A stretch of 64,000 bases of DNA from Burkholderiales bacterium. Its GTDB lineage: Bacteria > Pseudomonadota > Gammaproteobacteria > Burkholderiales > SG8-39. The notes under the pieces were generated by a model, which worked only from the letters and a program-made list of their open reading frames with translations, ran no database searches and was not told the origin of the DNA. Both the position numbers and the translations under genes were made by a program. Of this stretch, positions 18,916 through 45,167 are shown one piece after another. The stretch covers positions 11,819-75,818 of the forward strand of contig JBFJOO010000001.1 of the NCBI GenBank assembly GCA_041617635.1, written 5' to 3'. The number at the start of each line of letters is the position of its first letter. Positions within the stretch are counted from its first letter, which is position 1.

Positions 18916-19806
18916 ATGAAGGCGTTCAAGGTTGTCGAGGCGCGCGACGCGAACCACGCGGTCGCGCTGCTGGCCGAGCATGGCCGGTCGGTCAAGGTCC
19001 TCGCGGGCGGCACCGACATTCTCGTGGATTTCAAGCACGCCCCGCACGCACCCGAAGTGGTGCTCGACATCACTCGCGCCGAGGATCTGAAAGGCATAGC
19101 GATGACCGACGCGGGGCTGCGCATCGGCGCGCTGGCCACGCATACCGACATCATGCGCTCGCCCCTCATTCGCGAGAGCCTGCCGGCCCTCGTGGATGCC
19201 GCGCACACGATCGGCGCGGTGCAGACCCGCAACCTGGGCACGCTGGGCGGCAACCTCGTGACGTGCGTGCCCTCGATGGACAGCGGACCCACGCTCGTCG
19301 CGCTCGAGGCGCGGGTCGTCGTGGCCGGCCCGGGCGGCCGCCGCGACATGCCGTTGACCGAGTTCTTCGTCGGCCCGCGCAAAACCATCCTCAAGCCGGA
19401 CGAGCTGCTCCTCGAGATCGTGATCCCGAAAGAGAACGTGGGCAAGCCGACGGATTTTCGCAAGTTCGGCCTGCGCAAGGGCCAGGCGCTGGCGCTGGTG
19501 AACGTCGCCTCGAGCCTGTGGGTCGACCCCAAAAAGAAGACATTCGTCGCGCCGCGCATCGCGCTCGGCGCCGTGGCGCCCACCGTCATCCGCGCACCCA
19601 AAGCGGAGGCCTATCTGGACGGCAAGGCGATCACGCCCGAAGCGATGAGCGAGGCCGGCCGCATCGCCGCCGACGAAGCGCGACCGATCAGCGATTTTCG
19701 CGCATCGGCCGAGTACCGCCGCGATCTCATCGCGACCCTCACCCGGCGCACCCTGGAGAACGCCTACGCACAGGCCCAGGCGCGGCAGCAAGGAGATCCG
19801 AAATGA
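18916..19806 (+). CDS. molybdenum hydroxylase (xanthine dehydrogenase family) FAD-binding subunit
   Basis: KVLAGGTDILVDF FAD-binding motif and a CO_deh_flav_C-like end (SDFRASAEYRR). Start at MKAFKV (18916). Confidence 0.88.
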   Translation: MKAFKVVEARDANHAVALLAEHGRSVKVLAGGTDILVDFKHAPHAPEVVLDITRAEDLKGIAMTDAGLRIGALATHTDIMRSPLIRESLPALVDAAHTIGAVQTRNLGTLGGNLVTCVPSMDSGPTLVALEARVVVAGPGGRRDMPLTEFFVGPRKTILKPDELLLEIVIPKENVGKPTDFRKFGLRKGQALALVNVASSLWVDPKKKTFVAPRIALGAVAPTVIRAPKAEAYLDGKAITPEAMSEAGRIAADEARPISDFRASAEYRRDLIATLTRRTLENAYAQAQARQQGDPK

Positions 19807-20282
19807 CCGAAGTGAAGTTGAAGGTGAACGGCGAGGTCCGCACGGCGTCGGTCCCGCCCGAGACGACGCTGCTGAAGTTGCTGCGCGAGTCCTTCAATCT
19901 GACGGGCGCGAAGCTCGGGTGCGACGTAGGCGACTGCGGAGCCTGCACGGTCATCGTGGACGGCATGTCCGTGAACGCCTGCCTGATGCTGGTGAACCAG
20001 GTTCAGGGCCGCGAAGTCCTGACGATCGAGGGGTTGGCCACGGTCGACCATCTACACCCGATCCAGGAAACCTTCGAGGCGCTCGCATCGCTGCAGTGCG
20101 GATTCTGCGGGCCGGGGGTCATCATGGCCGCGAAGGCCCTGCTCGACGAGAACCCCGACCCGACCGTGCCGGAGATCCGCGACGCGCTCTCGGGGAATCT
20201 CTGCCGGTGCACCGGCTACACAAAAATGATCGAGGCCATTCAGGACGCCGCGCGAATCATGCGCGCGCGAGAGGCCGCGTGA
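19803..20282 (+). CDS. molybdenum hydroxylase [2Fe-2S] small subunit
   Basis: CDVGDCGACTV, LQCGFCGPG and NLCRCTGY cluster motifs. ATGA overlap with the FAD subunit. Confidence 0.93.
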   Translation: MTEVKLKVNGEVRTASVPPETTLLKLLRESFNLTGAKLGCDVGDCGACTVIVDGMSVNACLMLVNQVQGREVLTIEGLATVDHLHPIQETFEALASLQCGFCGPGVIMAAKALLDENPDPTVPEIRDALSGNLCRCTGYTKMIEAIQDAARIMRAREAA

Positions 20283-20306
20283 ATCCGCCATCCGGAGGAC
20301 GAAGCA

Positions 20307-21710
20307 ATGAATGACAAGCTGAGGATCGACGAGAAGGAAATCACGCAGGAGATGCTGCGCGATCAGGGCGAGGCGCTGCGGGTACCGGTCATCACGCCGC
20401 CCGTGCCGTATCCGATCGAGACCCTGGTTCCCGAGGTCCGTCAGCAGACGCCTGCGGTCGGCCAGCGCGCCACCCGGCCCGACGGCCGCCTCCATGGGCT
20501 CGGCCAGACCAAGTACATCGATGACCTGACGTTTCCCGGGATGCTGCATGCCAAGATCAAGCGGGCCGGCATCGCGTCGGCGCTGATCAAGCGCATCGAC
20601 ACGAGCGAGGCCGAGGCGATGCCGGGCGTGATGGCGGTGCTCACCGGCCGCGAGATCCCGGTCAACTCCTTCGGCCCGTCGCTGCAGGACCAGCCGGTGC
20701 TCTGCGACGAGCGCGTGTTCCACGCCGGGGACGGCGTCGCGGCGGTCGCGGCCGTCACGGAACAGATCGCCCTCGAGGCGCTCGAGAAGATCAAGGTCGA
20801 GTACGAGCCGCTGACACCGATCCTCGATCCGCTCGAGGCGATGCGGGACGACGCCCCAAAGGTGCATCCGCCCGCGAGCAACATCTACGCGCACAAGATC
20901 ATCAAGAAGGGCGACATCGAGAAGGGTTTCGCCGCCTCCGACCACGTCTTCCAGGCGCGCTTCTCCACCCAGATGGTCGAGCACGTGCCGCTCGAGCCGC
21001 ATGCGTCGATCGGGATGTGGGATTCCAACGGCCGCCTCACCGTCTACTCCAGCCTCGGCCGGATCACCCTCGGGCGCACCGACATCGCGCGCACGCTCCG
21101 GCTGCCGATCAATCGGGTTCACGTCGTGGCCACGATCGTCGGCGGCAACTTCGGCGGCAAGAACGAGATCACCCAGGAGCCGGTCGTCGCGCTGCTCGCG
21201 AAGAAGACCGGTCGGCCGGTGAAGGCCGTCTACTCGCGCGGCGAGGAATTCACCTCCTCGACGACGCGGCATCCGATCATCATGGACTACAAGACCGGCG
21301 TCTCGCGCGACGGCAAGATCCTCGCGCGGCAAGTGAAGCTCTACCTCGACGGCGGCGCCTACTGCTCGTGGAGCGAGACGACGCTCGGCAAGGCGTGCAT
21401 CCTGTCTCCCGGCCCGTACAACATCGAGAACGTCGAGGCCGAGGCGTTCGTGATCTACACGAACAAGACGGTGACCGGCGCCATGCGCGGCTTCGGCGCG
21501 CCGCAGGTCTGCTTCGCCTACGAGTCGCACATGGACGACATCGCGAAGGCGCTCGGCATCGATCCGCTCGAGATCCGGCTGCGCAACGCCTTCGGCGAAG
21601 GCTCGATCAGCCCCACCGGCCAGGTCCTGCACAGCGTCGTCGTCAGGGAATCGCTCGAGCGGGCCGCCGAGCGTTACGGCTGGCAGGAGACGCGGGAGGC
21701 CCGCTCATGA
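20307..21710 (+). CDS. molybdopterin-binding subunit, N-terminal piece (a/b-hammerhead + first Mo-binding domains) of a split large subunit
   Basis: XDH/aldehyde-oxidase-type active-site motif GAMRGFGAPQ (21483-21506). The ORF ends at the inter-domain linker. Confidence 0.88.
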   Translation: MNDKLRIDEKEITQEMLRDQGEALRVPVITPPVPYPIETLVPEVRQQTPAVGQRATRPDGRLHGLGQTKYIDDLTFPGMLHAKIKRAGIASALIKRIDTSEAEAMPGVMAVLTGREIPVNSFGPSLQDQPVLCDERVFHAGDGVAAVAAVTEQIALEALEKIKVEYEPLTPILDPLEAMRDDAPKVHPPASNIYAHKIIKKGDIEKGFAASDHVFQARFSTQMVEHVPLEPHASIGMWDSNGRLTVYSSLGRITLGRTDIARTLRLPINRVHVVATIVGGNFGGKNEITQEPVVALLAKKTGRPVKAVYSRGEEFTSSTTRHPIIMDYKTGVSRDGKILARQVKLYLDGGAYCSWSETTLGKACILSPGPYNIENVEAEAFVIYTNKTVTGAMRGFGAPQVCFAYESHMDDIAKALGIDPLEIRLRNAFGEGSISPTGQVLHSVVVRESLERAAERYGWQETREARS

Positions 21711-22753
21711 AGCGGCGCGGGCGCGGCATCGCCTGCATGTGGTACCCGATCGGCTTCACGGTCGCAGCCAATCCCAGCGCGGCGACGGTGAAGGTGAACG
21801 AGGACGGCACCGCCACGCTGCTCACCGGCACCGTGGAGACCGGCCAGGGCTCGCTGACGGTACTCGCCCAGATCGCAGCCGAGGAGCTCGGCGTCGCGAC
21901 CGAGGACATTCACGTGGTGTCGGCCGACACCGACGCGACGCCCATGGATACCGGCGCCATCGCGAGCCGCACCACCTACGTGACCGGCAACGCGACTCGG
22001 CTCGCCGCCGAGAAGTGCAAGGCGATCCTCTTCAACGTGGCCGCGCCGATGCTCGGCGTGCGCCCGGATCAGCTCGAGGCGCGCGATCGCAAGATCCAGG
22101 TGAAGCGCTTTCCGCAGCGCCAGCTGCCCATCGCCGACGTCGCGCGCCACGCGCTCTTCGTCAAGGGCGAGCCGCCGATCGGCAGCGCCTCGTTCAACCC
22201 CCCGACCGTGGCGATGGATCCGGAGACCGGCCAGGGCCTGCCGTTCGCGACGTACGTCTACGCGACGCAGATCGCCGAGGTCGACGTCGACGACGAGACC
22301 GGCGAGGTCGAGGTCCTGCGCATCGTGGCTTCGCACGATTGCGGCACCGCCATCAACCCGATGCTCGTCGAAGGCCAGATCGAGGGCGGCATCTCCATGG
22401 GGATCGGCCTTGCCCTGCAGGAGGAGATCCTCTTCGACAAGGAAGGCCGGCAGATCAACCCGAACCTCACCAACTACATCATGCCGACCAGCCTCGACAT
22501 GCCGGAGATCGAGGTCGACATCGTGCCGAGCTACGACCCGACCGGCCCCTTCGGCGCGAAAGGCGTCGGCGAGCCCACGTCGGTGCCCACCGCCGCCGCC
22601 ATCCTGAACGCGATCTACGACGCGGTCGGCGCGCGGGTCCACGCGCTGCCCGCCACCGCCGAGAAAGTCCGCGCGGCGATCAAGGCCGCCCGCGCAGAGG
22701 GCACCAAGCAACTCCCGGGCGCGCAGCGCGCGATCGCGGGCCCCGCCACGTAG
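21707..22753 (+). CDS. molybdopterin-binding subunit, C-terminal piece of a split large subunit
   Basis: Starts MKRRGRGIACMW..., then GTVETGQGS and C-terminal GAKGVGEP motifs. ATGA overlap with the preceding piece. Confidence 0.88.
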   Translation: MKRRGRGIACMWYPIGFTVAANPSAATVKVNEDGTATLLTGTVETGQGSLTVLAQIAAEELGVATEDIHVVSADTDATPMDTGAIASRTTYVTGNATRLAAEKCKAILFNVAAPMLGVRPDQLEARDRKIQVKRFPQRQLPIADVARHALFVKGEPPIGSASFNPPTVAMDPETGQGLPFATYVYATQIAEVDVDDETGEVEVLRIVASHDCGTAINPMLVEGQIEGGISMGIGLALQEEILFDKEGRQINPNLTNYIMPTSLDMPEIEVDIVPSYDPTGPFGAKGVGEPTSVPTAAAILNAIYDAVGARVHALPATAEKVRAAIKAARAEGTKQLPGAQRAIAGPAT

Positions 22754-22981: not shown

Positions 22982-23929
22982 TTACGGGATCGCGTGCGTG
23001 ATGAACTCTTCCGGCACGGGCTCGCCCCACTGCGAGCTGAGCCCTTCGTCTGCCGCGAAAAGGTTCGGCTTGTTGTGGACGTTGAGCACGTCGCTGTCGG
23101 TCCAGTGCTCGTGCACGCGGCCCCAGGGGTCCTGCCAGTAGTCGTACACCTGGCTGCCGAGCACGTGCCGGCCGATGCCCCACACGTGCTTGTACTTGCC
23201 GGCGCGCTTCAGGTGCTCGTGACCGAGCATCACGTCGTCGATGCTCTGCACCTCGAACGACAGGTGGTTGATTCCGACCTTCGGACCCTCGATGCACAGG
23301 AACACGTGATGATCGACGAAGGTCTCGCCCCGATCGCAGCGGTTGAACGTCGCGATGATGTTGTCTTTCGACCCGGCGTACACCTCGTCGGAGCAGACGA
23401 AGCCGAACATCTCCCGGTACCACTTGGTCCGCTCCAGAGCGTTCTGCGTCATGATGACGCCGTGGGCGGCGCGCTTGACTTGCGAGGGCCCGCGCTCGAG
23501 CCGCATCAGCTCGCCGGCGCGGCGGAGCTTCGCGTCTCCCCAGTTGAGGACATTGCGGCGGGTCGGCAGCGGAGCGAGCTGCTGCATGCCGCAGATGACT
23601 TCCATCTGGTAGCCGTGCGGGTCGATAATGCGCACGCGCTTGCCGCCGCCGGGCTCGTCGATGTTCTCCACCCCGCTCGCGCCTGCGACCTTGGAGAACC
23701 TCTTCAGGTCATCCTCGCTCTCGACATAGAAGGCGAGACCGATGAACTTGGACGGCCCGAGGTGCGTCACGTGGAGATGGTGAGCGGGATCCGTGCCGCG
23801 CATGTAGAGCCGGTCCGCGGTTCGCTCCGAGCGGACCATGCCGAAGTTCGTGAGGAACTCCTCGGCCTCGTCGAGGCTGGGGGACTGCAGGCGCCCGTAG
23901 GCGATATCGGTGACTTTGATGACCGGCAT
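22982..23929 (-). CDS. two-domain VOC-superfamily extradiol ring-cleavage dioxygenase (catechol 2,3-dioxygenase/BphC-like)
   Basis: Duplicated glyoxalase-like modules. Candidate 2-His-1-carboxylate ligands lie in AAHGVI, INHLSFEV and YWQDPWGRVHEHW. Start at MPVIKV (23929). Confidence 0.8.
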   Translation of the reverse strand: MPVIKVTDIAYGRLQSPSLDEAEEFLTNFGMVRSERTADRLYMRGTDPAHHLHVTHLGPSKFIGLAFYVESEDDLKRFSKVAGASGVENIDEPGGGKRVRIIDPHGYQMEVICGMQQLAPLPTRRNVLNWGDAKLRRAGELMRLERGPSQVKRAAHGVIMTQNALERTKWYREMFGFVCSDEVYAGSKDNIIATFNRCDRGETFVDHHVFLCIEGPKVGINHLSFEVQSIDDVMLGHEHLKRAGKYKHVWGIGRHVLGSQVYDYWQDPWGRVHEHWTDSDVLNVHNKPNLFAADEGLSSQWGEPVPEEFITHAIP

Positions 23930-24009: not shown

Positions 24010-25119
24010 TCAAGCGGCGGCCGGTCCGGAACGGATCCGGTGCCCGTCGGACCCGAACAGGCAGATCTGGTCGCGCGCCAGGGTCAATCCGAGCTGGACG
24101 CCCGAATCGAGCTCGGCGAGCGCCATGCTGTCGCTGACCGTCACGAACGGGCGTTCCATTCCGACATCGAAATAGAGCAGCGTCTCCTTGCCGAGCGGCT
24201 CGACCAGCCGGACCGGCAGCTGCATGTCGCTCGTCGCGCCGTTTCCGGGCGGCACGGCACTGATGTGCTCCGGGCGAATGCCGAGCGTGACGGGGCCCGC
24301 CGGCACGCCGTTGAATCGGTCCGGCAGCGGCACCGCGAAACCGGAAGACGCCCGGAAGCGCAGCGCGCCGGACTCTCGGATGACCTCGCCCGCGAGCAGG
24401 TTCATCGAGGGCGACCCGAAGAAATCGGCGACGAAGCTGTTCACCGGGTTCGAGTAGATCTCCATCGGCGAGCCCATCTGCTCGATCTCCCCGCCGCGCA
24501 TGACCACGATCCGGTCGGCGAGCGTCATCGCCTCCTCCTGGTCGTGGGTGACGAAAATGAACGTGCGCTTGAGCGCCTGATGCAGGCGGTCGCATTCCGC
24601 GCGCAGCTCGCGCCGCAGCTTGGCGTCGAGGCTGGAGAGCGGCTCGTCCAGCAAAAAGGTCGACGGGTGGGTCACCAGCGTGCGCGCCAGCGCGACGCGC
24701 TGCGATTCGCCGCCCGAGCACTGGCCGGGCATCTTGTTCAGCAGGTGCGTGAGCCGCACCATCTCGGCCACTTCCTGGACCTGCCGGGCCCGCTCGGCGG
24801 GCGGCACCTTTTTCATCCGCAGCCCGAACTCGATGTTCTGCGCGACGGTCTTGTGCGGGAACAGCGCATGGCTCTGGAACACCATGCCCAGGCCCCGATC
24901 GCGCGGCTCGAGGTCGTTGACCACCCGACCGTCGATGCGGATCTCGCCCGCGGTCGGATCCTCGAATCCCGCGATCATCCTGAGGGTGGTCGTCTTCCCG
25001 CATCCCGACGGTCCGACGAAGACCACGAACTCGCCGTCCTCGATCGTGACGTTGATGTCCTTCACCGCGGCAAGCGCGCCGTATTCCTTGCGCAGGTTGA
25101 CGAGTTCGATGCGCGCCAC
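24010..25119 (-). CDS. ABC transporter ATP-binding protein (MalK/UgpC type, CUT1 family)
   Basis: Walker A GPSGCGKTT, signature CSGGESQRV, Walker B FLLDEP, and a C-terminal TOBE-like domain. GTG start at 25119 behind a GGAGGT RBS. Confidence 0.9.
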   Translation of the reverse strand: MARIELVNLRKEYGALAAVKDINVTIEDGEFVVFVGPSGCGKTTTLRMIAGFEDPTAGEIRIDGRVVNDLEPRDRGLGMVFQSHALFPHKTVAQNIEFGLRMKKVPPAERARQVQEVAEMVRLTHLLNKMPGQCSGGESQRVALARTLVTHPSTFLLDEPLSSLDAKLRRELRAECDRLHQALKRTFIFVTHDQEEAMTLADRIVVMRGGEIEQMGSPMEIYSNPVNSFVADFFGSPSMNLLAGEVIRESGALRFRASSGFAVPLPDRFNGVPAGPVTLGIRPEHISAVPPGNGATSDMQLPVRLVEPLGKETLLYFDVGMERPFVTVSDSMALAELDSGVQLGLTLARDQICLFGSDGHRIRSGPAAA

Positions 25120-25121
25120 TG

Positions 25122-26000
25122 CTACCTCCGGATCATGCCAAAACTGAACCCGCGAGCGAGGTGCTTGCGGATGATGAGGCCGATGATGATGAGCGGGATG
25201 GTGATCCCGACCGAGAGCGCGGCCTGTCGCCCGTAGACGCGTCCTTCCGTGGATCCCTGGTACTTGGAAAGTTCGATCGGAAGGGTCACCACCTCCGTCT
25301 TGGCCAGGAGGAGCGCAAGCAGATACTCGCTCCAGGTGAGAATCAGGATGAACAGGAACGTGGCCACGAAACCTGAGCGCACAAGCGGGAACACCACCTC
25401 GAACAGCGTGCGCCAGCGTGGCGCGCCGAGGATCTCGGCGGCCTGCTCGACCTCGCGCGGCACCTCGTCGATGAAGCTCTTGAGCATCCACACCGCGTAA
25501 GGGAGGCTGGTGAGGAAGTAGATCAGGATGAGCCCGAATGCCGTGTCGAGGAGGCCGAGAACCGAGTAATAGAGGGAGAGCGGCGCGACGATCACGATCG
25601 GCGGAATCATGCGCAGCATCAGGAGCTGGAACATCCGCACCTCGGACAGGACTTTGTAGCGCGACACGCCGTAGGCGATGACACCGCCGTACACCACGGC
25701 GAGGGTCGTCGCGCTGAACGCGATCAGGAGACTGTTGCCCATGGCGAACCACGGGCGCTGCGCGGAGATGATGTACTGCGCCGTCGCAACCTCCTGGCGA
25801 CCGGTCCACACGTCCAGGTAATTGGCGATGGTCCAGGGATCCGGAATGTAGACCGTCGGCCACGCGAACCATTGCTCGCTCGGCTTGAACGACGTGCTGA
25901 CCATCCAGTAGAGCGGGAACGCCACGATGAGCGCCCACACCGTCAGGATCGTGTAGCGCACGATCGCCGCGATCCGGTTCTTCTGCGACTTGGTCATCAT
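25122..26000 (-). CDS. ABC transporter permease (carbohydrate-type, MalG/UgpE-like)
   Basis: 6-TM BPD_transp_1 pattern with an EAA-like loop (IDEVPREVEQAAEILGA). Confidence 0.88.
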   Translation of the reverse strand: MMTKSQKNRIAAIVRYTILTVWALIVAFPLYWMVSTSFKPSEQWFAWPTVYIPDPWTIANYLDVWTGRQEVATAQYIISAQRPWFAMGNSLLIAFSATTLAVVYGGVIAYGVSRYKVLSEVRMFQLLMLRMIPPIVIVAPLSLYYSVLGLLDTAFGLILIYFLTSLPYAVWMLKSFIDEVPREVEQAAEILGAPRWRTLFEVVFPLVRSGFVATFLFILILTWSEYLLALLLAKTEVVTLPIELSKYQGSTEGRVYGRQAALSVGITIPLIIIGLIIRKHLARGFSFGMIRR

Positions 26001-26022: not shown

Positions 26023-27000
26023 TCAGGCGCCGCGGGGCGCTGCGACGTACATCGCGTCGATGGCGTGCTTCTCGCGGCGCAGCAGCCGGATCGCGACGAG
26101 CACGATGACGATCATCAGCATCATCGCGACATACGAAAGCGCCGCGCCCTTGGACACCTGGAAGTACTGCCAGGTGGTGAGGAAGATGTACACCGGGATC
26201 GTCTCCGTGGCGCTGCCCGGACCGCCCTGGAAGAGTGCCCAGATCTTCGGGAACTCCGCCATCGCCTCCAGAAACCGCAGGATCAGCGCCAGGAAGATCA
26301 CCGGTCGCAGCAGCGGCAGCTGCACCTCCCAGAAGATGCGCCACGACGAAGCGCCGAGAATGCGCGCCGCTTCGATCGGTTCCTTGGGGAGCGCGGAAAA
26401 GCCGGCGAGCATGATGATGAAGGAGAACGGCGTCCAGTTCCAGATCTCGAGCAGCATCACGCTCGTCAGCGCAATTTCGGGATTGGTGAGCCACGGAACC
26501 TTGTCCTCGACGCCACTGATGCGGCTGATCATGTCGTTGACCGGACCGGTGTCATACAGCAGCATCTCGGCGGTGTACGCCACGACGATCGGCACCGTCA
26601 GCATCGGAATGATAAACAGGATGTAGAAGAGCGCCTGGCCGCGGAACGGCTTGTACATCAGGTAGGCCAGCCCGAAGCCGAGCAAAAAGCAGCCGATCGT
26701 CGATCCGAGCGCGAAAGCGAGCGAGCGCAGGATCGCCCAACCGAAGCGGGGGTCGGTGAGGACCTCCTGGAAGATGTCCAGTCCAATCCACTCCGCGTCC
26801 TGCCAGGACCCGAGATAGACCGACCACTGGTGGAACGAGAAGTAGAGTTGCAGGAGCAGGACAGGAAGCAGGACGCCGCCGAACAGCGCGATCAGCGGCA
26901 CGAGGATCGCCCACTTGAAGCGCCTGACTCCGCGCGCACGCGAGGCCTCGCGTGTTGCGGCGGGCGCGACCGATCCGGGAATGGCGACGACGCTGGACAT
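26023..27000 (-). CDS. ABC transporter permease (carbohydrate-type, MalF/UgpA-like)
   Basis: 6-TM BPD_transp_1 pattern with EAA loop (PIEAARILGASSWRIFWEVQLP). Confidence 0.88.
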   Translation of the reverse strand: MSSVVAIPGSVAPAATREASRARGVRRFKWAILVPLIALFGGVLLPVLLLQLYFSFHQWSVYLGSWQDAEWIGLDIFQEVLTDPRFGWAILRSLAFALGSTIGCFLLGFGLAYLMYKPFRGQALFYILFIIPMLTVPIVVAYTAEMLLYDTGPVNDMISRISGVEDKVPWLTNPEIALTSVMLLEIWNWTPFSFIIMLAGFSALPKEPIEAARILGASSWRIFWEVQLPLLRPVIFLALILRFLEAMAEFPKIWALFQGGPGSATETIPVYIFLTTWQYFQVSKGAALSYVAMMLMIVIVLVAIRLLRREKHAIDAMYVAAPRGA

Positions 27001-32643: not shown

Positions 32644-32687
32644 ATAATCCCTTAGAGTACTAGGTCGCATCAGCGCGATTGCTTCCA

Positions 32688-38046: not shown

Positions 38047-38841
38047 TCAGGCCGCGAAAGCGATCGCGTGCCCGACGAGCGCGTCGGGCTTCTGCACCTG
38101 CGGGCAGTGCCCGCAGTCCGGGATCTCCTCGTAGCGCGCACCCGCGATTCCTGCCGCGAGCTCGCGTGCGATCTGGGGCGGAGTCGTCTGGTCGAGCGCA
38201 CCGCACAGGACGAGCGTGGGATTGCGGATCTTGCCGAGTGCGGGCGCTAGATCCAGCTCGGTGAGCGCGAGCGCGGCGCGACCGAACGCCCCCGGCTCGG
38301 CCGTACGCAGCAGCGCCTCCTTGCGCTCGGCCACGATGCCGGGATTGGCCACAATGTAGTCCTCGGGGAACATGCGGCGGATCGCGATGTCGAGCGCGCC
38401 CTGCATGCCTTCCGCTGCAACGCGTGCAGCAAGCCCGCGCAGCGGCTCCTTCGCCGGCGCGGGAAATCCCGGCAGCGCATCGGCAACGATCAGCTTGCCG
38501 AATAGGGCGCCGTGCCGCACGGCGAGCGCCGTGGCGATGAAGCCGCCGAAGCCGTTGCCGAGGACCGTCGTGGACGGCGGCAGGCGCAGCGTGCGGATGA
38601 GCTCGGCCACCCAGTCCGCGTAGTCCTCCATCCTCACGGGCTCGGGCAGCGGCGCAGTACTGCCGTAGCCGGGCAAGTCAGGCGCCGTGACGCGAAAGCG
38701 CGCGGCGAGCGCCGGCAGCACACGATCGAACGACGAGCGCTCGGCAAGCAGCGAATGGACGAGCAGCAGGTCGGGCCCGCTGCCGGTCTGCACGACGGAC
38801 GCCGGTCGGCCGGCGACGGTTATCTTGCTCGCCTCGCTCAT
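38047..38841 (-). CDS. alpha/beta-hydrolase fold protein (MCP-hydrolase/enol-lactonase-like) with Gly at the nucleophile position
   Basis: Typical layout (LLLVHS..., PDLPGYG, C-terminal CGH). The nucleophile elbow reads GNGFGG (codon GGC, plus-strand 38551-38553) instead of GNSxGG. Confidence 0.75.
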   Translation of the reverse strand: MSEASKITVAGRPASVVQTGSGPDLLLVHSLLAERSSFDRVLPALAARFRVTAPDLPGYGSTAPLPEPVRMEDYADWVAELIRTLRLPPSTTVLGNGFGGFIATALAVRHGALFGKLIVADALPGFPAPAKEPLRGLAARVAAEGMQGALDIAIRRMFPEDYIVANPGIVAERKEALLRTAEPGAFGRAALALTELDLAPALGKIRNPTLVLCGALDQTTPPQIARELAAGIAGARYEEIPDCGHCPQVQKPDALVGHAIAFAA

Positions 38842-38870: not shown

Positions 38871-39632
38871 TCAGCCGGCGATCTGCTCCATCGCGCGCGC
38901 CGCGGCGCGCTGCGCCGGCGCGCTCGCGCTCATCTTCTCGACCAGCTGATCGTTGGTAATCACCCAGCCGAGGCAACGCGCGACGTTCTGCAGCCCGAGC
39001 ACGTGCAGGTCGTCGCCGTACATGCTGCCCACGCAGTCCGAGAGCAGCACGACGCGATAATCGTTGTTGAATGCGGTGAACGACGTGTTGAGCACACACG
39101 TGTTCGTATTGATGCCCATCAGACAGACCGTCTTCACGCCCAGCGTATCGAGGAGCGTCTTGAGGTCAGTGCCGTGAAAGCAGTCGAGCCGCTTCTTGTT
39201 GTTGATGACATAGTCGGTCGGCGCAAGCAGTTCGGGGATGATCTGCGTCCCGGGCGAGCCCTCGAGGTTGTGGCCATTCACCGTGCTGCGGCGGCCCGGC
39301 GTGAGGCGATCCTCCTCGGACATGACCTCGTGCAGCGCGCGCCAGAACGGCTGCCGCATGCCCTCGCTCCCCAGCCCCGGAATCTTCCGGTAAACCAAAA
39401 TCACGTGAACGACCGGCACGCGCTGCGACCGCGCAAAATCGAGCGCCCGCTTCGCGTTTGCGATGACGCGTTGGGCATCCTCCGGCTTCGTCGGCATGGT
39501 CGCGACGCCCATGTCCAGATGGCCGCGGTGCATATCCACCGTGACGATCGCAGTCTCCTTGGGATCGATCACGAGACCCTCGTAGAGCTTGTTGGTCATC
39601 GTGGAGCGGTCGAGTATCTCGATGCTTGCCAT
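38871..39632 (-). CDS. isochorismatase-family cysteine hydrolase (NicF/maleamate amidohydrolase-like)
   Basis: AIVTVDMH (Asp) and VCLMGINTNTCVLNT (Cys) motifs of the D-K-C triad fold. Confidence 0.8.
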   Translation of the reverse strand: MASIEILDRSTMTNKLYEGLVIDPKETAIVTVDMHRGHLDMGVATMPTKPEDAQRVIANAKRALDFARSQRVPVVHVILVYRKIPGLGSEGMRQPFWRALHEVMSEEDRLTPGRRSTVNGHNLEGSPGTQIIPELLAPTDYVINNKKRLDCFHGTDLKTLLDTLGVKTVCLMGINTNTCVLNTSFTAFNNDYRVVLLSDCVGSMYGDDLHVLGLQNVARCLGWVITNDQLVEKMSASAPAQRAAARAMEQIAG

Positions 39633-39660: not shown

Positions 39661-40494
39661 TCAAGCTGCGCCCGGCAGCGTGCGGGCCAGCCAGCCGGCG
39701 ACCAGTTCCGTCACCGCGTCCTCGCGGCCGACGTAGTAGTGGCCACAGTTTCGCACGATTTCGACGGCGCAGGGACCGCCTGCGCGACGCTGGAATTCCT
39801 CTGCGGGATAGAGGTCCACCGGCTCCTCGTCGCCGCGCAGATACAGGACCGGGCAGGCGATGCGCGGTGCCAACTCGAGAACGTCCGGCACCTCGGTAAG
39901 GTAATCGAGGAAGCTCTCGGCGGTGATGACGTACCACCAGCCGGGCAGCAGCATGAGCTCACGGCCCCGCCCGGCGGCGACCAGCGCGCGGGCCTGAGCG
40001 GTGATCTCCTCGATCCGATCGCCGGCGAGCAGCCCCGCCTTGCTCGCGCGGGCGACGATGCCCTTGCCGCCGCAGTGCGCGGACAGGAGCACCAGCGCAG
40101 GCGTTTCCGGATGGTCGGCCACATGGCGCACCGCAAGCATGCCGCCGTTCGAGTGCCCGATCACGACCGGGCGCGCAAAGCCTCGGGCGCCCAGCCACTC
40201 GGCCGCAATGCGATTGTCCGCGATCGCCTCGCGCGTGAGCTGAAACGCCCCGCCCTCCGCTGCCCGGCTGGCGCGGTTGCTGAGAACGTCGTGTCCGCGC
40301 CGGTTGAAGGCGAGACAAGCGTAGCCGAGGCGCGTCAGGGCCGGCGGCAGGAACCGCGGCGCTCCGACGTAGAAATTCATGGTGTTGCCGTGGAACAGCA
40401 GCGCCGCCCCAGTGGGTGCCGCATCCTCGGGCGCGTAGAACACGCCGTCGAGGGGCGTGGTGTCGGTGGGAATGGTGACCAGTGTGGCGCGCAT
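39661..40494 (-). CDS. alpha/beta hydrolase
   Basis: Nucleophile elbow VIGHSNGG and a C-terminal CGH. 277 aa. Confidence 0.78.
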   Translation of the reverse strand: MRATLVTIPTDTTPLDGVFYAPEDAAPTGAALLFHGNTMNFYVGAPRFLPPALTRLGYACLAFNRRGHDVLSNRASRAAEGGAFQLTREAIADNRIAAEWLGARGFARPVVIGHSNGGMLAVRHVADHPETPALVLLSAHCGGKGIVARASKAGLLAGDRIEEITAQARALVAAGRGRELMLLPGWWYVITAESFLDYLTEVPDVLELAPRIACPVLYLRGDEEPVDLYPAEEFQRRAGGPCAVEIVRNCGHYYVGREDAVTELVAGWLARTLPGAA

Positions 40495-40644: not shown

Positions 40645-41652
40645 ATGATCAACGCGGCAATCGTGGGACTGGGCTGGTGGGGCAAGACGCTCGTCAACTC
40701 CGTGCAGGGCAAGAGCGACCTGATCCGCTTCGCCGCGGCGCATACGCGCACACGCTCCAAGGTTGAGGATTTTTGCCGCGAGAAGGACATCGTCTTCCAG
40801 GAAGACTTGCAGGCCATCTTCAGCGACCCGAAGATCGACGCCGTCGTCTACGCGGCGCAGCACACCGATCGCAGCGATCAGGTCCAGAAGACGGCCGCCG
40901 CCGGCAAGCACGTGTTCGTCGAGAAGCCATTCGCGCTCGACCTCAAGGCCTGCGATGCGGCGCTCGCCGCGGTCAAGCGGGCCGGCGTCGTCCTGGGAGT
41001 CGGGTACAACCGGCGCTTTCCGCCGGCGGTCAACGAGCTCCGCGCGCGGGTCAAGGACGGACGCCTGGGCACCATCGTCGGCGCGACTGGCGAAGCGAAC
41101 GCGCCGGCGGGTCTCGCGATCGCCAAGGGCTACTGGCGCGCGGACCCGGTCCAGGCGCCCGCTGGCCCGCTGACCGGCCTCGGCGTGCACGTCCTCGACA
41201 CGTTCGTGGATCTCTTCGGTCCGGTCGGCGAGGTGTACGCCATCGACACCCGGCGCGCCGCCGAGAACGTCGACGACGTGCTGAGCGTGCAGATGACGAT
41301 GAAGAGCGGCCTCCCAGCGAGCTTCTTCTGCTCGCTCTCGACCGCGGTCAGCTACCGGATCGCGGTATTCGGGACGAAAGGATCCGGCGAGGTGCTGCGC
41401 CCGAATTTCGACACCTTCCAGTTCATTCCTTCGGCCACCGGCCCGATGCAGGGGCAGTTCAAGCCCGCGGAGCCCGAGGTCCTCGTCACGAAGGACTTCG
41501 ACTCCGTCAGGGCGGAGCTGGAAGCCTTCGCCATCGCGATTCGCGACAAGCAGCCGTTCCCGAACTCGCACGACCAGATCCGGCAGGTCACCGCGGCGTT
41601 CGCGGCGATCGTCGAGTCGGCGGCGGCGCGCAAGCCGGTCAAGGTCGACTGA
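40645..41652 (+). CDS. Gfo/Idh/MocA family oxidoreductase
   Basis: AGGAGG RBS. N-terminal Rossmann AIVGLGWWG and the EKP motif (VFVEKPF). The 687-aa track ORF was trimmed to ATG 40645. Confidence 0.85.
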   Translation: MINAAIVGLGWWGKTLVNSVQGKSDLIRFAAAHTRTRSKVEDFCREKDIVFQEDLQAIFSDPKIDAVVYAAQHTDRSDQVQKTAAAGKHVFVEKPFALDLKACDAALAAVKRAGVVLGVGYNRRFPPAVNELRARVKDGRLGTIVGATGEANAPAGLAIAKGYWRADPVQAPAGPLTGLGVHVLDTFVDLFGPVGEVYAIDTRRAAENVDDVLSVQMTMKSGLPASFFCSLSTAVSYRIAVFGTKGSGEVLRPNFDTFQFIPSATGPMQGQFKPAEPEVLVTKDFDSVRAELEAFAIAIRDKQPFPNSHDQIRQVTAAFAAIVESAAARKPVKVD

Positions 41653-41668: not shown

Positions 41669-42358
41669 ATGGCGCAGATCGACATCGTCAGCGCGAGCAC
41701 CTGCCCGTTCGCGCAGCGCACGCGCATGGTGCTGCTCGAAAAGCGCATCGATTTCTCGCTCACGGAAATCGATCTCGACGCCAAGCCGGCCTGGTTTCTC
41801 GCGATCTCGCCCTACGCGAAGGTGCCGGTGATCCGGCACGGGGATGCGGTCGTCTGGGAATCGGCGGTGATCAACGAGTACCTCGAGGAGGTCTTTCCCG
41901 AGCCAGCGTTGCTGCCTCGCGACCCCGTGCGGCGGGCGCAGGCCCGCGTCTGGATCGACTTCGCGAACACCCGCATGGTCCCGCACGTCTACAAGATGAT
42001 GCTGCGCCAGGACGGCGCAGGACAGGAACTGCATCGTCGCCGGCTGACCGAAGCCGTGCTCGCAATGGAGCAGGGCCTGCGCGATCTCTCGGGCGGCCCC
42101 TACTGGCTCGGCGGGCGGCCGAGCCTCGTCGACTTCACCTTCTTTCCGCACGTGCAGCGCTTCGTCGCGCTCGAGCACTACCGCGGCTTCGCGATCCCCG
42201 CGACCTGCGAGCGGCTCCTGCGCTGGCGCGAAGCGATGCTCGTTCTTCCCTCGGTGCAGGCTACGCGCCCGCCGGACGCGCTCCTCATCAGGAACTGGGC
42301 CAAGTACGCGCACGACACCAGCACCGGGGTCACCGCGCAGGAAATGCGCGAAAGCTGA
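41669..42358 (+). CDS. glutathione S-transferase, Cys-type (omega-class-like)
   Basis: Thioredoxin-fold N-terminus with the CPFAQR active-site motif (as in omega-class CPFA) and ESAVINEYLEE. Confidence 0.75.
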   Translation: MAQIDIVSASTCPFAQRTRMVLLEKRIDFSLTEIDLDAKPAWFLAISPYAKVPVIRHGDAVVWESAVINEYLEEVFPEPALLPRDPVRRAQARVWIDFANTRMVPHVYKMMLRQDGAGQELHRRRLTEAVLAMEQGLRDLSGGPYWLGGRPSLVDFTFFPHVQRFVALEHYRGFAIPATCERLLRWREAMLVLPSVQATRPPDALLIRNWAKYAHDTSTGVTAQEMRES

Positions 42359-42363: not shown

Positions 42364-43404
42364 ATGGCAAGCAAGCGACCCGAACCGCGGCAAAGCCCAT
42401 CTCGCAACCGGAAGGTTCGCGTGCGCACGATCGACACGCATGCGCACTGGTACCCGGCGGACTGGCTGAAGCTCTTCGAGCGCGATGGCGCCGCCGAAGG
42501 CGCACGGCTCGAGCGCAAGGGAAGCGGCTACGTCATTCGCACCGAGCGCATCACCAACGCGTTCGACGAGGAGTTCGTCGATCTCGGTCTGCGCATCGCG
42601 GGCATGGATCGCCAGGGCGTCGACGTGCACGCGCTTTCGCTCACCACGCCGATGGTCAACTGGGCATCGCCGGGATTCGGGCTCGCGCTCGCGCAGGCCT
42701 ACAACGACGCTGCGGCCGCCGCGCACACCGGGCATCCGGATCGCTTCATCGGCTTCGCCATGGTGCCGATGCAGGCCACCGAGCTCGCGGTCCGGGAGCT
42801 CGAGCGTGCCGCGAAGCTGCCCGGCATCCGCGGCATGTACCTCGCCACCAACATCAACGGCACCGAGCTCGACGAAAAACGTTACTGGGACGTGTACGCG
42901 AAGGCGGAGGAGCTCGGCCTGCCGATCTTCCTCCACCCGGTCGACACGATCGGGCGCGAGCGCACCACGCGCTACCACCTGAAGAATCTGCTCGGCAACC
43001 CATACGACACCGGCGTGGCTGCGGCCAGTCTCATCTTTGGCGGCGTGCTCGACGAGTTTCCCAAGCTCGAGGTGAACCTCCCGCACGCCGGCGGCGCGCT
43101 GCCCGGCCTGATCGGTCGCATGGATCACGGCACGAAGGTGCGTCCGGAGCTCAAGCACATGAAGCGCTTGCCGAGCGAGTATCTCAAGCGCTTCACCTAC
43201 GACACCATCGGCCACAGCGACCGCATCAATCTCGATCTCATCCGGCTCGTCGGCGCCGACCGCGTGCTGCTCGGCAGCGACTACTGCTTCGACATGGGCC
43301 TCGTCGATCCCGTGGGGACCATCGAGCGTCTGGACGCGCTGACCGAGGCCGAACGCGACCTCATCCTTGGCAGGACCGCTGCACGTCTGCTCCGGCTGGA
43401 GTAA
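42364..43404 (+). CDS. amidohydrolase_2 (ACMSD-type) family protein
   Basis: IDTHAHWYP metal motif, HPVD, HAGGALP, and a C-terminal GSDY..D. Confidence 0.82.
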   Translation: MASKRPEPRQSPSRNRKVRVRTIDTHAHWYPADWLKLFERDGAAEGARLERKGSGYVIRTERITNAFDEEFVDLGLRIAGMDRQGVDVHALSLTTPMVNWASPGFGLALAQAYNDAAAAAHTGHPDRFIGFAMVPMQATELAVRELERAAKLPGIRGMYLATNINGTELDEKRYWDVYAKAEELGLPIFLHPVDTIGRERTTRYHLKNLLGNPYDTGVAAASLIFGGVLDEFPKLEVNLPHAGGALPGLIGRMDHGTKVRPELKHMKRLPSEYLKRFTYDTIGHSDRINLDLIRLVGADRVLLGSDYCFDMGLVDPVGTIERLDALTEAERDLILGRTAARLLRLE

Positions 43405-43653: not shown

Positions 43654-44931
43654 ATGACCGACCAGTACGGCAAATCCTATCCGTTCCAGCCGATGGACTG
43701 GATCGAAGGCGTGAACATGGACAAGCTCCGCACCGGACGCCTTGCCCGCGCCAAGAAGGAGCTCTTCGAAAAGCGCAAGTTCGGCGGGCTGCTGTCGCTG
43801 AACGAGTGGAACACGCGCTACATCACGGCCACCTACACGCCGCCGTGGACGACGCCAAGCTCCGGCCTGCGCTACTCGCTGCTCCTCAAGGGCGATGCGC
43901 AGCCGATCATCTTCGAGCAGGGCGACATCGGCTATCACACCCAGCGCAATTCGCCATGGCTGCCGCCGGAGAACGTTCGCTATGCGATCACCGGCATGGG
44001 ATGGATTGCCCGCTGTATGGGCGAGTCGGCCCACCGGGCGGCGGTCGTTCGATTCGTGGACCAGATCTGTGCCGAGCTCAAGCGGGCCGGCGTCCAAAAA
44101 GAAGTCCTTGCAATGGACTTCTCCGATCCTTACATCGCCTCCGCATTCGAGGCGAAGGGCGTGCGGACGAGCGGCGAAGGGTTCGTGGCGATGCTGGAGG
44201 CGCGCAAGCACAAGCTCCCCGAGGAGGTCGAGTGCCTGCGCAACACTTGCACCATCGGCGACGCCATGTTCGACGCGCTGGTGAACACCGTGCGGCCGGG
44301 AGTGAGCGAGCACGAGATCCTCGGCGAGGCCTTCAAGGCCTGCTATGTGAACGGCGGCGAGGTCCACTCCGGCGTCTTCTGCACCTCCGGCCCGTACTCG
44401 TGGCCCAACCTGCGCCACTCGACCGGCCGGCGCCTCGCCCACGGCGACGTCATCTACATGGACGTCTACAACACCTGCTGGAACGGCTACAAGACCTGCT
44501 ACTACCGCAGCTTCAGCGTCGGCGAGCCCTCCAAGGCCACCGTCGCCGCCTACAAGCGCGCCTACGAATGGCTCTACGACGCGATCAGCGTGATCAAGCC
44601 GGGTGTAACGACCAAGGAGGTCGCCGAGCGCTGGCCGGCGGGTCCTGACGTCTGGGCCGACATCGGCGTCGTGCACGAGGATCAGACGGCCGGCAACAAC
44701 TGGGCGCATGGAATCGGCCTCACGCTATACGAGCCGCCGCTCGTATGGCGCGGCTGCTCGCTCGAGCATCCGATGGTCATCGAGGAGGACATGTGCTTTG
44801 CCATCGAGACCCAGGAGGGCGACGGCGAGGGGCAGGGCGTGCGGATGGAGGAGGTCATCCACGTGACCAAGACCGGCGTCGAGATCCTCTCGAAGTGGCC
44901 GATCAAGGAAATCACCGTGATTCCGGTCTGA
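43654..44931 (+). CDS. M24-family (pita-bread fold; creatinase/prolidase/DddP-like) hydrolase, paralog 1
   Basis: GGAGGG RBS. C-terminal pita-bread motifs AHGIGL, FAIETQ and RMEEVIHVT. The canonical GY.SD.TRT reads GYKTCYYRS (Cys codon 44497-44499). Confidence 0.8.
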   Translation: MTDQYGKSYPFQPMDWIEGVNMDKLRTGRLARAKKELFEKRKFGGLLSLNEWNTRYITATYTPPWTTPSSGLRYSLLLKGDAQPIIFEQGDIGYHTQRNSPWLPPENVRYAITGMGWIARCMGESAHRAAVVRFVDQICAELKRAGVQKEVLAMDFSDPYIASAFEAKGVRTSGEGFVAMLEARKHKLPEEVECLRNTCTIGDAMFDALVNTVRPGVSEHEILGEAFKACYVNGGEVHSGVFCTSGPYSWPNLRHSTGRRLAHGDVIYMDVYNTCWNGYKTCYYRSFSVGEPSKATVAAYKRAYEWLYDAISVIKPGVTTKEVAERWPAGPDVWADIGVVHEDQTAGNNWAHGIGLTLYEPPLVWRGCSLEHPMVIEEDMCFAIETQEGDGEGQGVRMEEVIHVTKTGVEILSKWPIKEITVIPV

Positions 44932-44936
44932 CGGCC

Positions 44937-45167
44937 ATGCGCATCTTCGACTTCGGCTGTTCCGCCTGCGGGCATTTCTTCGAGGCCTTTGTGCGCACCG
45001 CAAGCGATGCCCCGGTTTGCCCGCAATGCGGGGCCGGGAACGTTGCGCGCCGGCCGGTGCTGCAGATCGCGGTCCATACGCGCAACACGCGACGCGGGCG
45101 GACTATCGACCTCGGCTCGAATTCATGCCCGTGTGCCGCCCACGGTCCAGGGCACGCACGCCGGTGA
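44937..45167 (+). CDS. FmdB-family zinc-ribbon protein
   Basis: MRIFDFGCSACGHFFE...APVCPQCG, two CxxC knuckles typical of FmdB/CxxC_CxxC_SSSS proteins. Starts 5 nt after the M24 stop. Confidence 0.7.
   Translation: MRIFDFGCSACGHFFEAFVRTASDAPVCPQCGAGNVARRPVLQIAVHTRNTRRGRTIDLGSNSCPCAAHGPGHARR

Follow-up and report, generated by a model that had tools for sequence, protein, structure and literature searches.

Do the catabolic genes packed into positions 18,916–45,167 of this 64,000-nucleotide stretch of a Burkholderiales bacterium genome (GenBank GCA_041617635.1, contig JBFJOO010000001.1, positions 11,819–75,818; hereafter the window) belong together, and what kind of compound would they consume? 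The answer we favor, with about an even chance of being right, is that they form a supercluster of catabolic genes on the chromosome of an uncultured soil or freshwater betaproteobacterium of Burkholderiales type. It would serve a single N-heteroaromatic carboxylate or a few related ones, possibly imported as an ester or amide conjugate. Candidate substrates are of the pyridine, purine/pyrimidine-like, or conjugated type. A core made of a CocE/NonD hydrolase, an importer, an ACMSD-type decarboxylase (Amh1), and a HIBADH-type dehydrogenase recurs in other genomes, and it is often joined by an isochorismatase-type amidase, a serine alpha/beta hydrolase (ABH2), and molybdenum (Mo) hydroxylases of three interchangeable architectures. 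Because pairs of these genes recur together elsewhere, the genes of four transcription units of the window (CocE and the importer, Amh1, HIBADH, isochorismatase, ABH2, and the hydroxylases) are functionally linked.

Genes were called by GC3 frame plot and inspection of start codons, the six-frame open reading frame (ORF) lists of the window being mostly spurious frames, and families were assigned with Pfam and NCBIfam. The result is one coherent set of 26 genes in about five to six transcription units. They fall into five groups of co-oriented genes, with gaps of 121–289 bp between groups and 4-bp overlaps within them (FAD1/FeS1, MoA1/MoB1, FAD2/FeS2, FeS2/MoL2, and MoL2/HIBADH). The families named by an earlier, sequence-only reading of the window were all recovered by Pfam in the same places; two starts were corrected, that of VOC (to 23929, giving 315 aa) and that of CocE (to 30572, giving 594 aa). 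The genes are listed here with strand and supporting evidence.

18916–19806 (+): unit A, NdhF-like FAD subunit (Pfam FAD_binding_5 and CO_deh_flav_C; below all NCBIfam cut-offs)
19803–20282 (+): unit A, NdhS-like 2Fe-2S subunit (Pfam Fer2_2 and Fer2)
20307–21710 (+): unit A, NdhL-like Mo subunit MoA1, N-terminal half of a split large subunit (Ald_Xan_dh_C and MoCoBD_1)
21707–22753 (+): unit A, NdhM-like Mo subunit MoB1, C-terminal half (Pfam MoCoBD_2)
22982–23929 (−): unit B, two-domain VOC protein, type I extradiol dioxygenase-like, 315 aa (Pfam Glyoxalase)
24010–25119 (−): unit B, MalK-type ATPase of a CUT1-type ABC importer (Pfam)
25122–26000 and 26023–27000 (−): unit B, ABC permeases (Pfam)
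27077–28522 (−): unit B, substrate-binding protein (SBP) with Tat motif SRREFIK (Pfam and motif)
28788–30572 (−): unit B, CocE/NonD family serine hydrolase, 594 aa, nucleophile motif GISYY (Pfam Peptidase_S15 and PepX_C)
30862–32004 (+): unit C, Amh1, ACMSD-type metal-dependent decarboxylase (Pfam Amidohydro_2)
32044–32643 (+): unit C, CoxG/SRPBCC accessory protein (Pfam COXG)
32679–33566 (+): unit C, CoxM-like FAD subunit of hydroxylase 2 (Pfam)
33563–34045 (+): unit C, CoxS-like 2Fe-2S subunit of hydroxylase 2 (Pfam)
34042–36384 (+): unit C, Mo large subunit MoL2 of hydroxylase 2, 780 aa (PDB match, loop motif)
36381–37268 (+): unit C, HIBADH-type beta-hydroxyacid/semialdehyde dehydrogenase (Pfam NAD_binding_2 and NAD_binding_11)
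37272–37925 (+): unit C, MaiA, zeta-class glutathione S-transferase (GST-zeta), maleylacetoacetate/maleylpyruvate-type isomerase (NCBIfam TIGR01262)
38047–38841 (−): unit D, ABH1, alpha/beta-fold protein (Pfam Abhydrolase_1/6)
38871–39632 (−): unit D, isochorismatase-family cysteine hydrolase (amidase) (Pfam Isochorismatase)
39661–40494 (−): unit D, ABH2, canonical serine alpha/beta hydrolase with motif GHSNG (Pfam, motif)
40645–41652 (+): unit E, Gfo/Idh/MocA dehydrogenase (Pfam)
41669–42358 (+): unit E, glutathione S-transferase GST2 (Pfam)
42364–43404 (+): unit E, Amh2, second ACMSD-type decarboxylase (Pfam Amidohydro_2)
43654–44931 (+): unit E, M24 hydrolase (Pfam, NCBIfam)
44937–45167 (+): unit E, FmdB-type zinc-ribbon protein (Pfam, NCBIfam)
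45262–46200 (−): LysR-type regulator, convergent with unit E (Pfam HTH_1 and LysR_substrate)

About 170 related loci (numbered L) were compared overall, with Amh1 as the anchor for 80 genome loci and CocE for 80 metagenome loci; in low-GC loci, genes were placed by tblastn maps and ORF lists instead of GC3 calling. The closest loci are from metagenome-assembled genomes (MAGs) of uncultured Betaproteobacteria/Burkholderiales, and only two of them (L008 and L009, ~90% identity) keep the whole arrangement. In 18 of 44 betaproteobacterial loci, versus two of 36 Rokubacteria-type loci, the Amh1 homolog has a Mo large subunit gene at a distance of 10 kb or less. The pairing of ACMSD-type decarboxylases with Mo hydroxylases, which the sequence-only reading had picked out here, is thus a feature of many genomes. 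The partner hydroxylases have three unrelated architectures, namely the split Ndh type (L010 and L067, the latter at 63%–81% identity), the CoxMSL type (L013–17 and L097, with the order Amh1-CoxG-CoxMSL in L013–17), and the IorAB type (L063, L064, L076, L079, L083, and Variovorax L177). The window's own Amh1-CoxGMSL-HIBADH arrangement has its like in L096–98.

Other pairs cross the unit boundaries of the window. Amh1 occurs with CocE and its ABC genes in L012 and L053 and with ABH2 in L010 and L011, L010 reading bicupin-NdhFSLM-Amh1 with ABH2 opposite. Three freshwater Burkholderiales (L076, L079, and L083) carry the string Gfo-TetR-flavin reductase-luciferase-like monooxygenase-CocE-Liv-type ABC-Amh1-HIBADH-IorAB, together with a second IorBA pair and a ModA-like SBP. 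With the isochorismatase as anchor, we found a compact operon, HIBADH / CocE-Isoch-LivABC-Amh1, in L094 and CocE-Isoch in L093 (53%–75% identity); the isochorismatase homologs themselves (75%) directly follow CocE in both. HIBADH homologs of 50%–60% identity adjoin Amh1 or CocE in L076, L079, L083, and L094. As for what is imported, the Liv-type SBP of L094 is closest to PDB 4ey3/4eyg/4eyk (5e-54), which we take to be R. palustris binders of benzoate derivatives (aromatic acids), and the best solved relative of the window's Tat-SBP, at only 2.5e-9, is uninformative.

With CocE as anchor, the window's own CUT1 transporter stands beside CocE in at least 25 loci (59%–80% identity), usually with a tandem CocE; ABH2 is present in seven of the 80 metagenome loci and Mo subunits in 15. 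In metagenome loci L114–L171, a CUT1-type ABC transporter is followed by two tandem CocE/NonD paralogs (67%–73% to the window CocE), often with no other catabolic gene near. The tandem pair suggests that an imported conjugate is cleaved by a hydrolase of two subunits or in two steps.

Among the matches listed, proteins of the module families are 70%–90% identical across Betaproteobacteria, and Amh1 keeps 70%–75% out to Rokubacteria. Related pieces are also carried by cultured bacteria, among them Variovorax sp. PDNC026, with LivFG-Amh1-like-IorAB, and Polynucleobacter sinensis MWH-HuW1, where an Amh1-like gene is accompanied by HIBADH, TetR, and Gfo genes, an alpha/beta hydrolase, and a RutA/F-like pair. 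In MAGs of Rokubacteria/Methylomirabilota (L018–L054), Amh1 orthologs are co-transcribed with a Bmp/PnrA-type (nucleoside-like) ABC transporter, and a PhyH-family Fe/2OG dioxygenase, an NAD epimerase, and an enolase-superfamily gene stand beside Amh1. By analogy, this set recalls the logic of fungal thymine 7-hydroxylase/iso-orotate decarboxylase.

Hydroxylase 1 (unit A) points to a heterocyclic ring. The sequence-only reading had called it a split XDH-type enzyme, which stands and can be narrowed to the NdhF-S-L-M type on the strength of its matches to 3HRD. The best PDB match of MoA1 is 3hrd_A, the NdhL of Eubacterium barkeri nicotinate dehydrogenase (4.1e-85; residues 51–456 on 8–414); the next structure follows at 4.5e-57, about 28 orders of magnitude away in E-value. 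MoB1 1–328 aligns with 3hrd_B (NdhM) 1–328 at 4.5e-85, so the split point is homologous; both chains start with MK(R/K)RG(R/K)G. The large subunit is divided into L (~425 aa) and M (~330 aa) chains, the gene order is F-S-L-M, and the XDH-family catalytic glutamate is present, GAKGVGEP being kept in MoB1 in alignment with 3hrd_B. Four subunits, gene order, split residue, and glutamate are therefore common to hydroxylase 1 and E. barkeri NdhFSLM, but E. barkeri is an anaerobe, whereas the host of hydroxylase 1 is presumably an aerobic betaproteobacterium. Apart from a HIBADH-family dehydrogenase, the cluster lacks the remaining enzymes with which E. barkeri degrades nicotinate (6-hydroxynicotinate reductase, enamidase, and B12 mutase).

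MoB1 belongs to a family of 4830 homologs at E ≤ 1e-30 (80%–95% identity among the matches listed) that is abundant in environmental Betaproteobacteria; some members bear the automatic JGI label “nicotinate dehydrogenase medium molybdopterin subunit” (NdhM). Neither hydroxylase falls in the non-heterocycle families that the sequence-only reading had set against its own proposal, Ndh and Qor being the closest. A purine substrate, which that reading had counted as a refutation, is possible for hydroxylase 1, as judged from its sequence, because the NCBIfam XdhA and PucD models score well on its subunits (as does XdhB; all yet below cut-off) and because the NDH clade has a purine hydroxylase as its neighbor in a preprint (10.1101/2025.04.24.650524).

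Relatives of hydroxylase 1 also occur in other company. A 46% homolog in Sagittula stellata adjoins a gene that PGAP names 6-hydroxynicotinate reductase. This plasmid locus of strain E-37 (L178; NZ_CP155730.1, 93–102 kb) encodes, besides the “6-hydroxynicotinate reductase,” an Ndh-like hydroxylase made of an FAD subunit and a fused FeS/Mo subunit, a ferredoxin-NADP reductase, a UPF0280 protein, two “amino acid synthesis family” proteins, and hydantoinase/oxoprolinase A and B. The set has the look of a hybrid nicotinate pathway that a roseobacter would run aerobically. Two MAGs (L175 and L176) have NdhFSLM operons of 77%–86% identity preceded by an Asp/Glu/hydantoin-racemase-family gene, whose product has a single obvious catalytic cysteine motif (LGLCET), and a TctC receptor; L176 alone adds a polysaccharide-deacetylase-family gene (Polysacc_deac_1) and a 291-aa Amidohydro_2. 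The racemase and deacetylase families include maleate isomerase and also allantoin racemase and the PuuE allantoinase.

Hydroxylase 2 (unit C) is, as had been proposed for 32044–36384, of the coxG-MSL type by Pfam. The best PDB match of MoL2 is quinoline 2-oxidoreductase (Qor; 1t3q_B, 9e-146), followed by mycobacterial CoxL and by 6-hydroxypseudooxynicotine dehydrogenase (Kdh; 1e-134). Qor and Kdh share the L-M-S architecture with hydroxylase 2, which differs from them in its coxG gene, its active-site loop PIRGAGRP, and scores below every NCBIfam cut-off. That loop, where CO dehydrogenase has VAYRCSFR with the Cu-binding cysteine, together with a TIGR02416 score of 522 bits against a 991-bit cut-off, rules out a form I aerobic CO dehydrogenase (CoxL). 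The MoL2 gene overlaps the HIBADH-type gene (stop/start; translational coupling), and MaiA begins 3 bp after the latter; we know of no quinoline or nicotine cluster in which decarboxylase, HIBADH, and GST-zeta genes are coupled to such an enzyme.

Both Amidohydro_2 proteins proved to be ACMSD-type, as anticipated: human ACMSD is the best PDB match of Amh1 (1.5e-53) and Amh2 (5e-58), far above LigW and the gamma-resorcylate, 2,3-DHB, and iso-orotate decarboxylases. The two are 39% identical to each other. Amh1 keeps the metal ligands (HxH, reading HCH; His174; Asp291), His224, and the substrate arginines Arg47 and Arg235 (human numbering); its alignment to 2wm1_A spans residues 69–352, and the Arg47 equivalent (R66) was placed by ungapped extension by hand. 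Trp191 of ACMSD is replaced, and Amh1 has an N-terminal insertion. Since metal ligands, catalytic histidine, and both carboxylate-binding arginines are kept, Amh1 would fit a decarboxylase for a substrate with two anionic groups. These residues are common to ACMSD; the other enzymes of the ACMSD pathway (3-hydroxyanthranilate dioxygenase, aminomuconate semialdehyde dehydrogenase, and deaminase) are all absent from the cluster. In the cultured Paraburkholderia largidicola PGU16, genes for two FAD monooxygenases and a cyt c/FeS/Mo hydroxylase are found close to an Amh2 homolog (47%).

Among the hydrolases, CocE scores 238 bits on NCBIfam TIGR00976, a broad subfamily model (cut-off 66.3 bits), and its ~54% homologs in Variovorax and Shinella adjoin BKACE genes, a different context. 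In unit D, order and families agree with the sequence-only reading of two alpha/beta hydrolases flanking an isochorismatase-family amidase, but only one of the two has a serine nucleophile. ABH2 has the nucleophile motif GHSNG, and the isochorismatase has its catalytic cysteine within GINTNTCV. ABH1 has GNGFGG in place of the G-x-S-x-G elbow, where distant homologs read GLSMGG/GLSLGG; because GNGFGG is kept in both close orthologs (L008 and L009), ABH1 should be no classical serine deformylase, and its sequence suggests that it is a pseudo-enzyme or, if active, that this alpha/beta-fold protein works by a non-classical mechanism. The isochorismatase finds its best curated NCBIfam matches in RutB and biuret hydrolase, far below cut-off (RutB, 60.6 versus 378 bits). 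Its match to the NicF structures 3ot4/3uao (3.1e-8 over residues 124–233) is weaker than those to 3kl2, biuret hydrolase, and RutB.

From these parts a route can be sketched. A (hetero)aromatic carboxylate or its conjugate would be imported, and CocE would cleave the ester or amide. The NdhFSLM-type and Qor/Kdh-like enzymes would then hydroxylate next to the ring nitrogen, yielding pyridone- or lactam-type rings, and Amh1 and/or Amh2 would decarboxylate non-oxidatively. Ring opening would follow, a step that VOC may perform here; among relatives, the place of VOC is taken by a bicupin, a RutA/RutF-like flavin monooxygenase, or a PhyH dioxygenase, or there is no oxygenase nearby. The isochorismatase-type amidase and ABH2 could release the amide or ureido group, after which the HIBADH-type enzyme would handle a semialdehyde or hydroxy acid and GST-zeta would isomerize a cis-enedioyl product. 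Because relatives vary the oxygenases (or have none near) around an invariant hydrolase/amidase/decarboxylase/dehydrogenase core, the comparison suggests that the core acts on an already oxidized ring and that the hydroxylases are “front ends” that set the substrate range.

Several genes of the window are less firmly tied to this module. The sequence-only reading had VOC as the pathway dioxygenase in place of NicX. The genomic contexts of the VOC family (3828 proteins at E ≤ 1e-10; 70%–100% identity among the 120 matches listed) tell against this. Homologs of 72%–83% identity (L005–L007 and L088–L091) stand beside TRAP transporters, Rieske oxygenases, UbiD, or nothing relevant; the gene stands alone in unrelated neighborhoods in Burkholderiales, Stellaceae, and Nitrosomonas; and VOC is missing from the otherwise orthologous operon of L012. 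PGAP names the homologs “VOC family protein” or “catechol 1,2-dioxygenase,” and the NCBIfam HpaD and catechol 2,3-dioxygenase models give weak full-length matches. VOC therefore probably lies outside the conserved module. Identical copies of the protein occur on contigs of several NCBI MAGs, for example, GCA_041593235.1.

MaiA is the sole equivalog-level assignment in the cluster (TIGR01262, 236 bits versus a 171-bit cut-off, positions 1–209 of 211). It had been cast as the pathway isomerase, a role at odds with its distribution: MaiA, like GST2 and ABH1, accompanies the module only in L008 and L009. The M24 hydrolase and zinc ribbon follow a 249-bp gap and have no independent synteny support; no examined locus has them with the module, both lying beyond the ±10 kb covered in Amh1-anchored loci.

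What weighs against the supercluster reading should be set out plainly. Only MaiA and the broad CocE/NonD model pass curated NCBIfam cut-offs, and no homolog is characterized, the close relatives all coming from MAGs or metagenomes; the locus counts given above are not phylogenetically independent. Rokubacterial Amh1 orthologs (70%–75% identity) have other neighbors, PhyH dioxygenases in 17 of 36 and Bmp/PnrA-type ABC transporters in nine of 36, and L094 has the core module without any Mo hydroxylase within 10 kb. In Novosphingobium, a 46% Amh1 homolog is part of a cluster with VOC, FAH, and flavin-monooxygenase genes, as is typical for the breakdown of carbocyclic aromatics. Finally, XDH-family enzymes oxidize aldehydes too, and an aldehyde substrate is possible for hydroxylase 2 because it scores 625 bits on an archaeal glyceraldehyde dehydrogenase model.

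Could the window instead be a mosaic of several independent, merely adjacent catabolic units with different substrates and no single pathway? We regard this as fairly unlikely. The units would be CocE with the ABC importer; the Ndh-type hydroxylase; Amh1-CoxGMSL-HIBADH-MaiA; ABH2-Isoch-ABH1; Gfo-GST-Amh2; and M24-ZnR. Such an explanation would suit the restriction of the full arrangement to L008 and L009, the occurrence of the CocE and CUT1 ABC unit alone, with tandem CocE, in more than 20 metagenome loci, and the appearance of NdhFSLM (L175 and L176) and VOC among unrelated neighbors. Gaps of 249–289 bp between units, the absence of an operator motif common to the intergenic regions, and the further unrelated catabolic genes at 46–64 kb point the same way. 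It is countered by the cross-unit pairs that recur, rearranged, elsewhere (CocE/Amh1, CocE/Isoch, Amh1/HIBADH, Amh1 with each hydroxylase type, and ABH2 with CocE or Amh1), since mere neighbors are not expected to recur in new arrangements.

A carbocyclic aromatic route, for hydroxybenzoate, 2,3-dihydroxybenzoate-type meta-cleavage, or lignin-derived acids and aldehydes, seems to us clearly improbable. In it the Mo enzymes would be aldehyde oxidoreductases, VOC an extradiol dioxygenase, MaiA a maleylpyruvate-type isomerase, and the ACMSD-type proteins would act on a ring-fission product, as DhbB of Pseudomonas reinekei does in decarboxylating one. The VOC similarities to HpaD and catechol 2,3-dioxygenase, the equivalog-level GST-zeta, the glyceraldehyde dehydrogenase score of hydroxylase 2, the benzoate-derivative binders to which the L094 SBP is related, the Novosphingobium Amh1-like gene (with VOC, FAH, and a flavin oxidoreductase), and an intradiol dioxygenase beside Gfo-CocE-Mo in L141 would all accommodate it. 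Yet hydroxylase 1 is specifically NdhLM-like, with a relative that adjoins the 6-hydroxynicotinate reductase gene; VOC is no conserved module member; and a FAH-family hydrolase, a ring-hydroxylating oxygenase, and a flavin monooxygenase are all absent from the cluster by Pfam.

The sequence-only reading had drawn a parallel to the lower pathways of nicotinate (nic) and picolinate (pic) degradation, with VOC for NicX, an alpha/beta hydrolase as NicD/PicE, the isochorismatase as NicF/PicF, and GST-zeta for NicE. The pic route has an amidohydrolase-family decarboxylase, PicC, after Mo-dependent ring hydroxylation (PMC10142695; WP_003807348.1 and WP_094197645.1). The cluster shares with pic/nic systems (Alcaligenes, Bordetella, Pseudomonas) the Mo hydroxylation, a decarboxylase of the same broad amidohydrolase superfamily, the isochorismatase-family amidase, and an alpha/beta hydrolase, but their hydroxylases are of the NicAB type and the cluster's are FAD-containing XDH types; CocE/NonD, HIBADH, CoxG, the GSTs, Gfo, and M24 have no counterpart there. 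Among the 26 genes, Pfam found no flavin monooxygenase or non-VOC dioxygenase domain (NicX, NicC, PicB, PicD, or HpaM type), and in the cluster no NicE Asp/Glu-racemase-type maleate isomerase. The more general claim, of a variant N-heteroaromatic route with Mo hydroxylases and a decarboxylase, stands; the stepwise mapping fails because VOC and MaiA are unlinked, the ABH1 nucleophile is lost, NicF is distant, and the NicX, NicC, and NicE types are absent. Family-level matches, the catalytic cysteine of the isochorismatase, the canonical serine of ABH2, and Amh1-/Amh2-like genes near PicA/NicAB-type hydroxylases in cultured Burkholderiales notwithstanding, we consider the parallel very improbable, with the isochorismatase sharing only the family with NicF (3uao, 3e-8, below RutB, biuret hydrolase, and uncharacterized members) and no cluster enzyme (NicC/PicB/HpaM-type monooxygenase) for the hydroxyl meta to the ring nitrogen that 2,5-dihydroxypyridine needs.

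Other described pathways were compared as well. The Rut pathway is echoed by RutB as the top NCBIfam match of the isochorismatase, by a weak RutD match of ABH1 (45 versus 238 bits), by the luciferase-like monooxygenase, flavin reductase, and TetR of module relatives (compare RutA, RutF, and RutR), and by a plausible semialdehyde reductase function for the HIBADH-type enzyme. Rut itself includes neither Mo hydroxylases nor an ACMSD-type decarboxylase, Pfam found no Bac_luciferase/Flavin_Reduct (RutA/RutF) gene in the cluster, and RutB/RutD equivalog level was not reached. Nor did Pfam find among the 26 genes the enzymes of canonical aerobic purine catabolism (uricase/HpxO, HIU hydrolase, OHCU decarboxylase, allantoinase, and allantoicase). 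We rejected lumazine/pterin degradation as in Cupriavidus LA-1, which needs an amidase-signature isomerase and a UbiD decarboxylase (PMC12391406); the dipicolinate dip cluster, which is Mo-independent and monooxygenase-initiated (PMC11472048); lumichrome/riboflavin catabolism, which needs P450, TPP, and Rieske enzymes (PMC12746152); and the 2,8-dioxopurine pathway, which uses SsnA, HyuA, YgeW, and YgeY (10.1101/2025.04.24.650524). The clostridial xanthine-to-formiminoglycine route, whose genes were still unidentified in 2012 (PMC3519856), is attractive for its hydrolase, ureido-amidase, and decarboxylase steps but leaves the HIBADH-type enzyme without a role.

How might the cluster be controlled? 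No protein encoded at 18.9–45.2 kb has a helix-turn-helix or other DNA-binding domain by Pfam, the zinc ribbon being the only remotely “regulatory” family. The sequence-only reading was thus right that this interval has no canonical transcription factor and that the nearest is the convergent LysR at 45262. The absence is real and weakly informative: relatives (the L076/L079/L083 type and Polynucleobacter sinensis) have a TetR gene within the module. Three blocks in the divergent CocE/Amh1 region (30657–30806) are candidate operator or promoter elements for a regulator, judging by their sequence and conservation:

30661–30681: triple direct repeat CTGCGAT-CTGCGAT-CTGCAAT, partly kept in L008 and L009
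30708–30726: conserved block GCTGGTGCACCGCACCAAG, kept in L008 and L009
30784–30797: perfect palindrome TGATCGACCGATCA, a candidate operator, followed by GTTAAC

In L008 and L009 the palindrome is conserved within the block TAATGATCGA(C/G)CGATCAGTTAACATC. It occurs once in the cluster, so there is no evidence for one shared operator, and a search for an operator common to the intergenic regions returned only GC-rich chance 9-mers. A scan for consensus promoters and terminators gave no more sites than shuffled sequence.

The left flank (1–18 kb) is core genome (lptC, rpoN, ptsN, hprK, rapZ, mutY, asmA, 5′-nucleotidase, and EamA), and the right flank (46–64 kb) holds further accessory catabolic genes (among them an OsmC fusion, a PEP-utilizing enzyme fragment, and a Zn-ADH). 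The OsmC fusion (46292–47641, −) is a 449-aa protein whose OsmC domain is confined to the C terminus (337–436), its N-terminal 330 residues having no Pfam match. Two tandem D-2-hydroxyacid dehydrogenase paralogs lie at 47515–49945 (−), and a second set of M24/creatinase-like, Gfo/Idh/MocA, TctABC, and LysR genes at 52245–60113 partly repeats the families of unit E. GC content is 0.63–0.69 throughout the window with no compositional break, scans of the cluster region found no tRNA or Rfam family, and no integrase, transposase, or mobile-element domain is present among the genes scanned by Pfam in and around the cluster (a subset of the window ORFs). The “island” of the sequence-only reading is therefore to be understood as a cluster of genes rather than as a mobile element. 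A megablast of 25 kb against PLSDB plasmids gave ABC-ATPase fragments alone; hence, the cluster has no close annotated relative there.

What would the supercluster mean? One proposal, which we put forward as tentative and on balance unlikely, is that the CocE/isochorismatase/ACMSD-type/HIBADH module is an undescribed, largely hydrolytic, oxygenase-sparing route for oxidized N-heterocyclic carboxylates (pyridone-, uracil-, or purine-derived). If so, lineages would plug NdhFSLM, CoxMSL, or IorAB Mo hydroxylases, RutA-like monooxygenases, or PhyH dioxygenases into the module, and this window, with two Mo hydroxylases, would be its most elaborate version. Clusters of such a type are common in soil Burkholderiales and current understanding is uncontradicted, so we see here a well-supported lead rather than a discovery. 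What is known of Mo-hydroxylase routes for pyridine, quinoline, and purine rings comes from a few cultured strains. Hydroxylase 1 is a homolog of the E. barkeri-type split nicotinate dehydrogenase, characterized so far only in an anaerobe, and its family is very abundant in the environment; no counterpart has been described for the downstream enzymes wired to it. Were the substrate identified, thousands of genes annotated as “amidohydrolase,” “cysteine hydrolase,” or “CocE/NonD” in metagenomes from soil and freshwater would gain a function, and common N-heterocycles, among them vitamins, nucleobase derivatives, and plant alkaloid acids, might prove to have a new fate.

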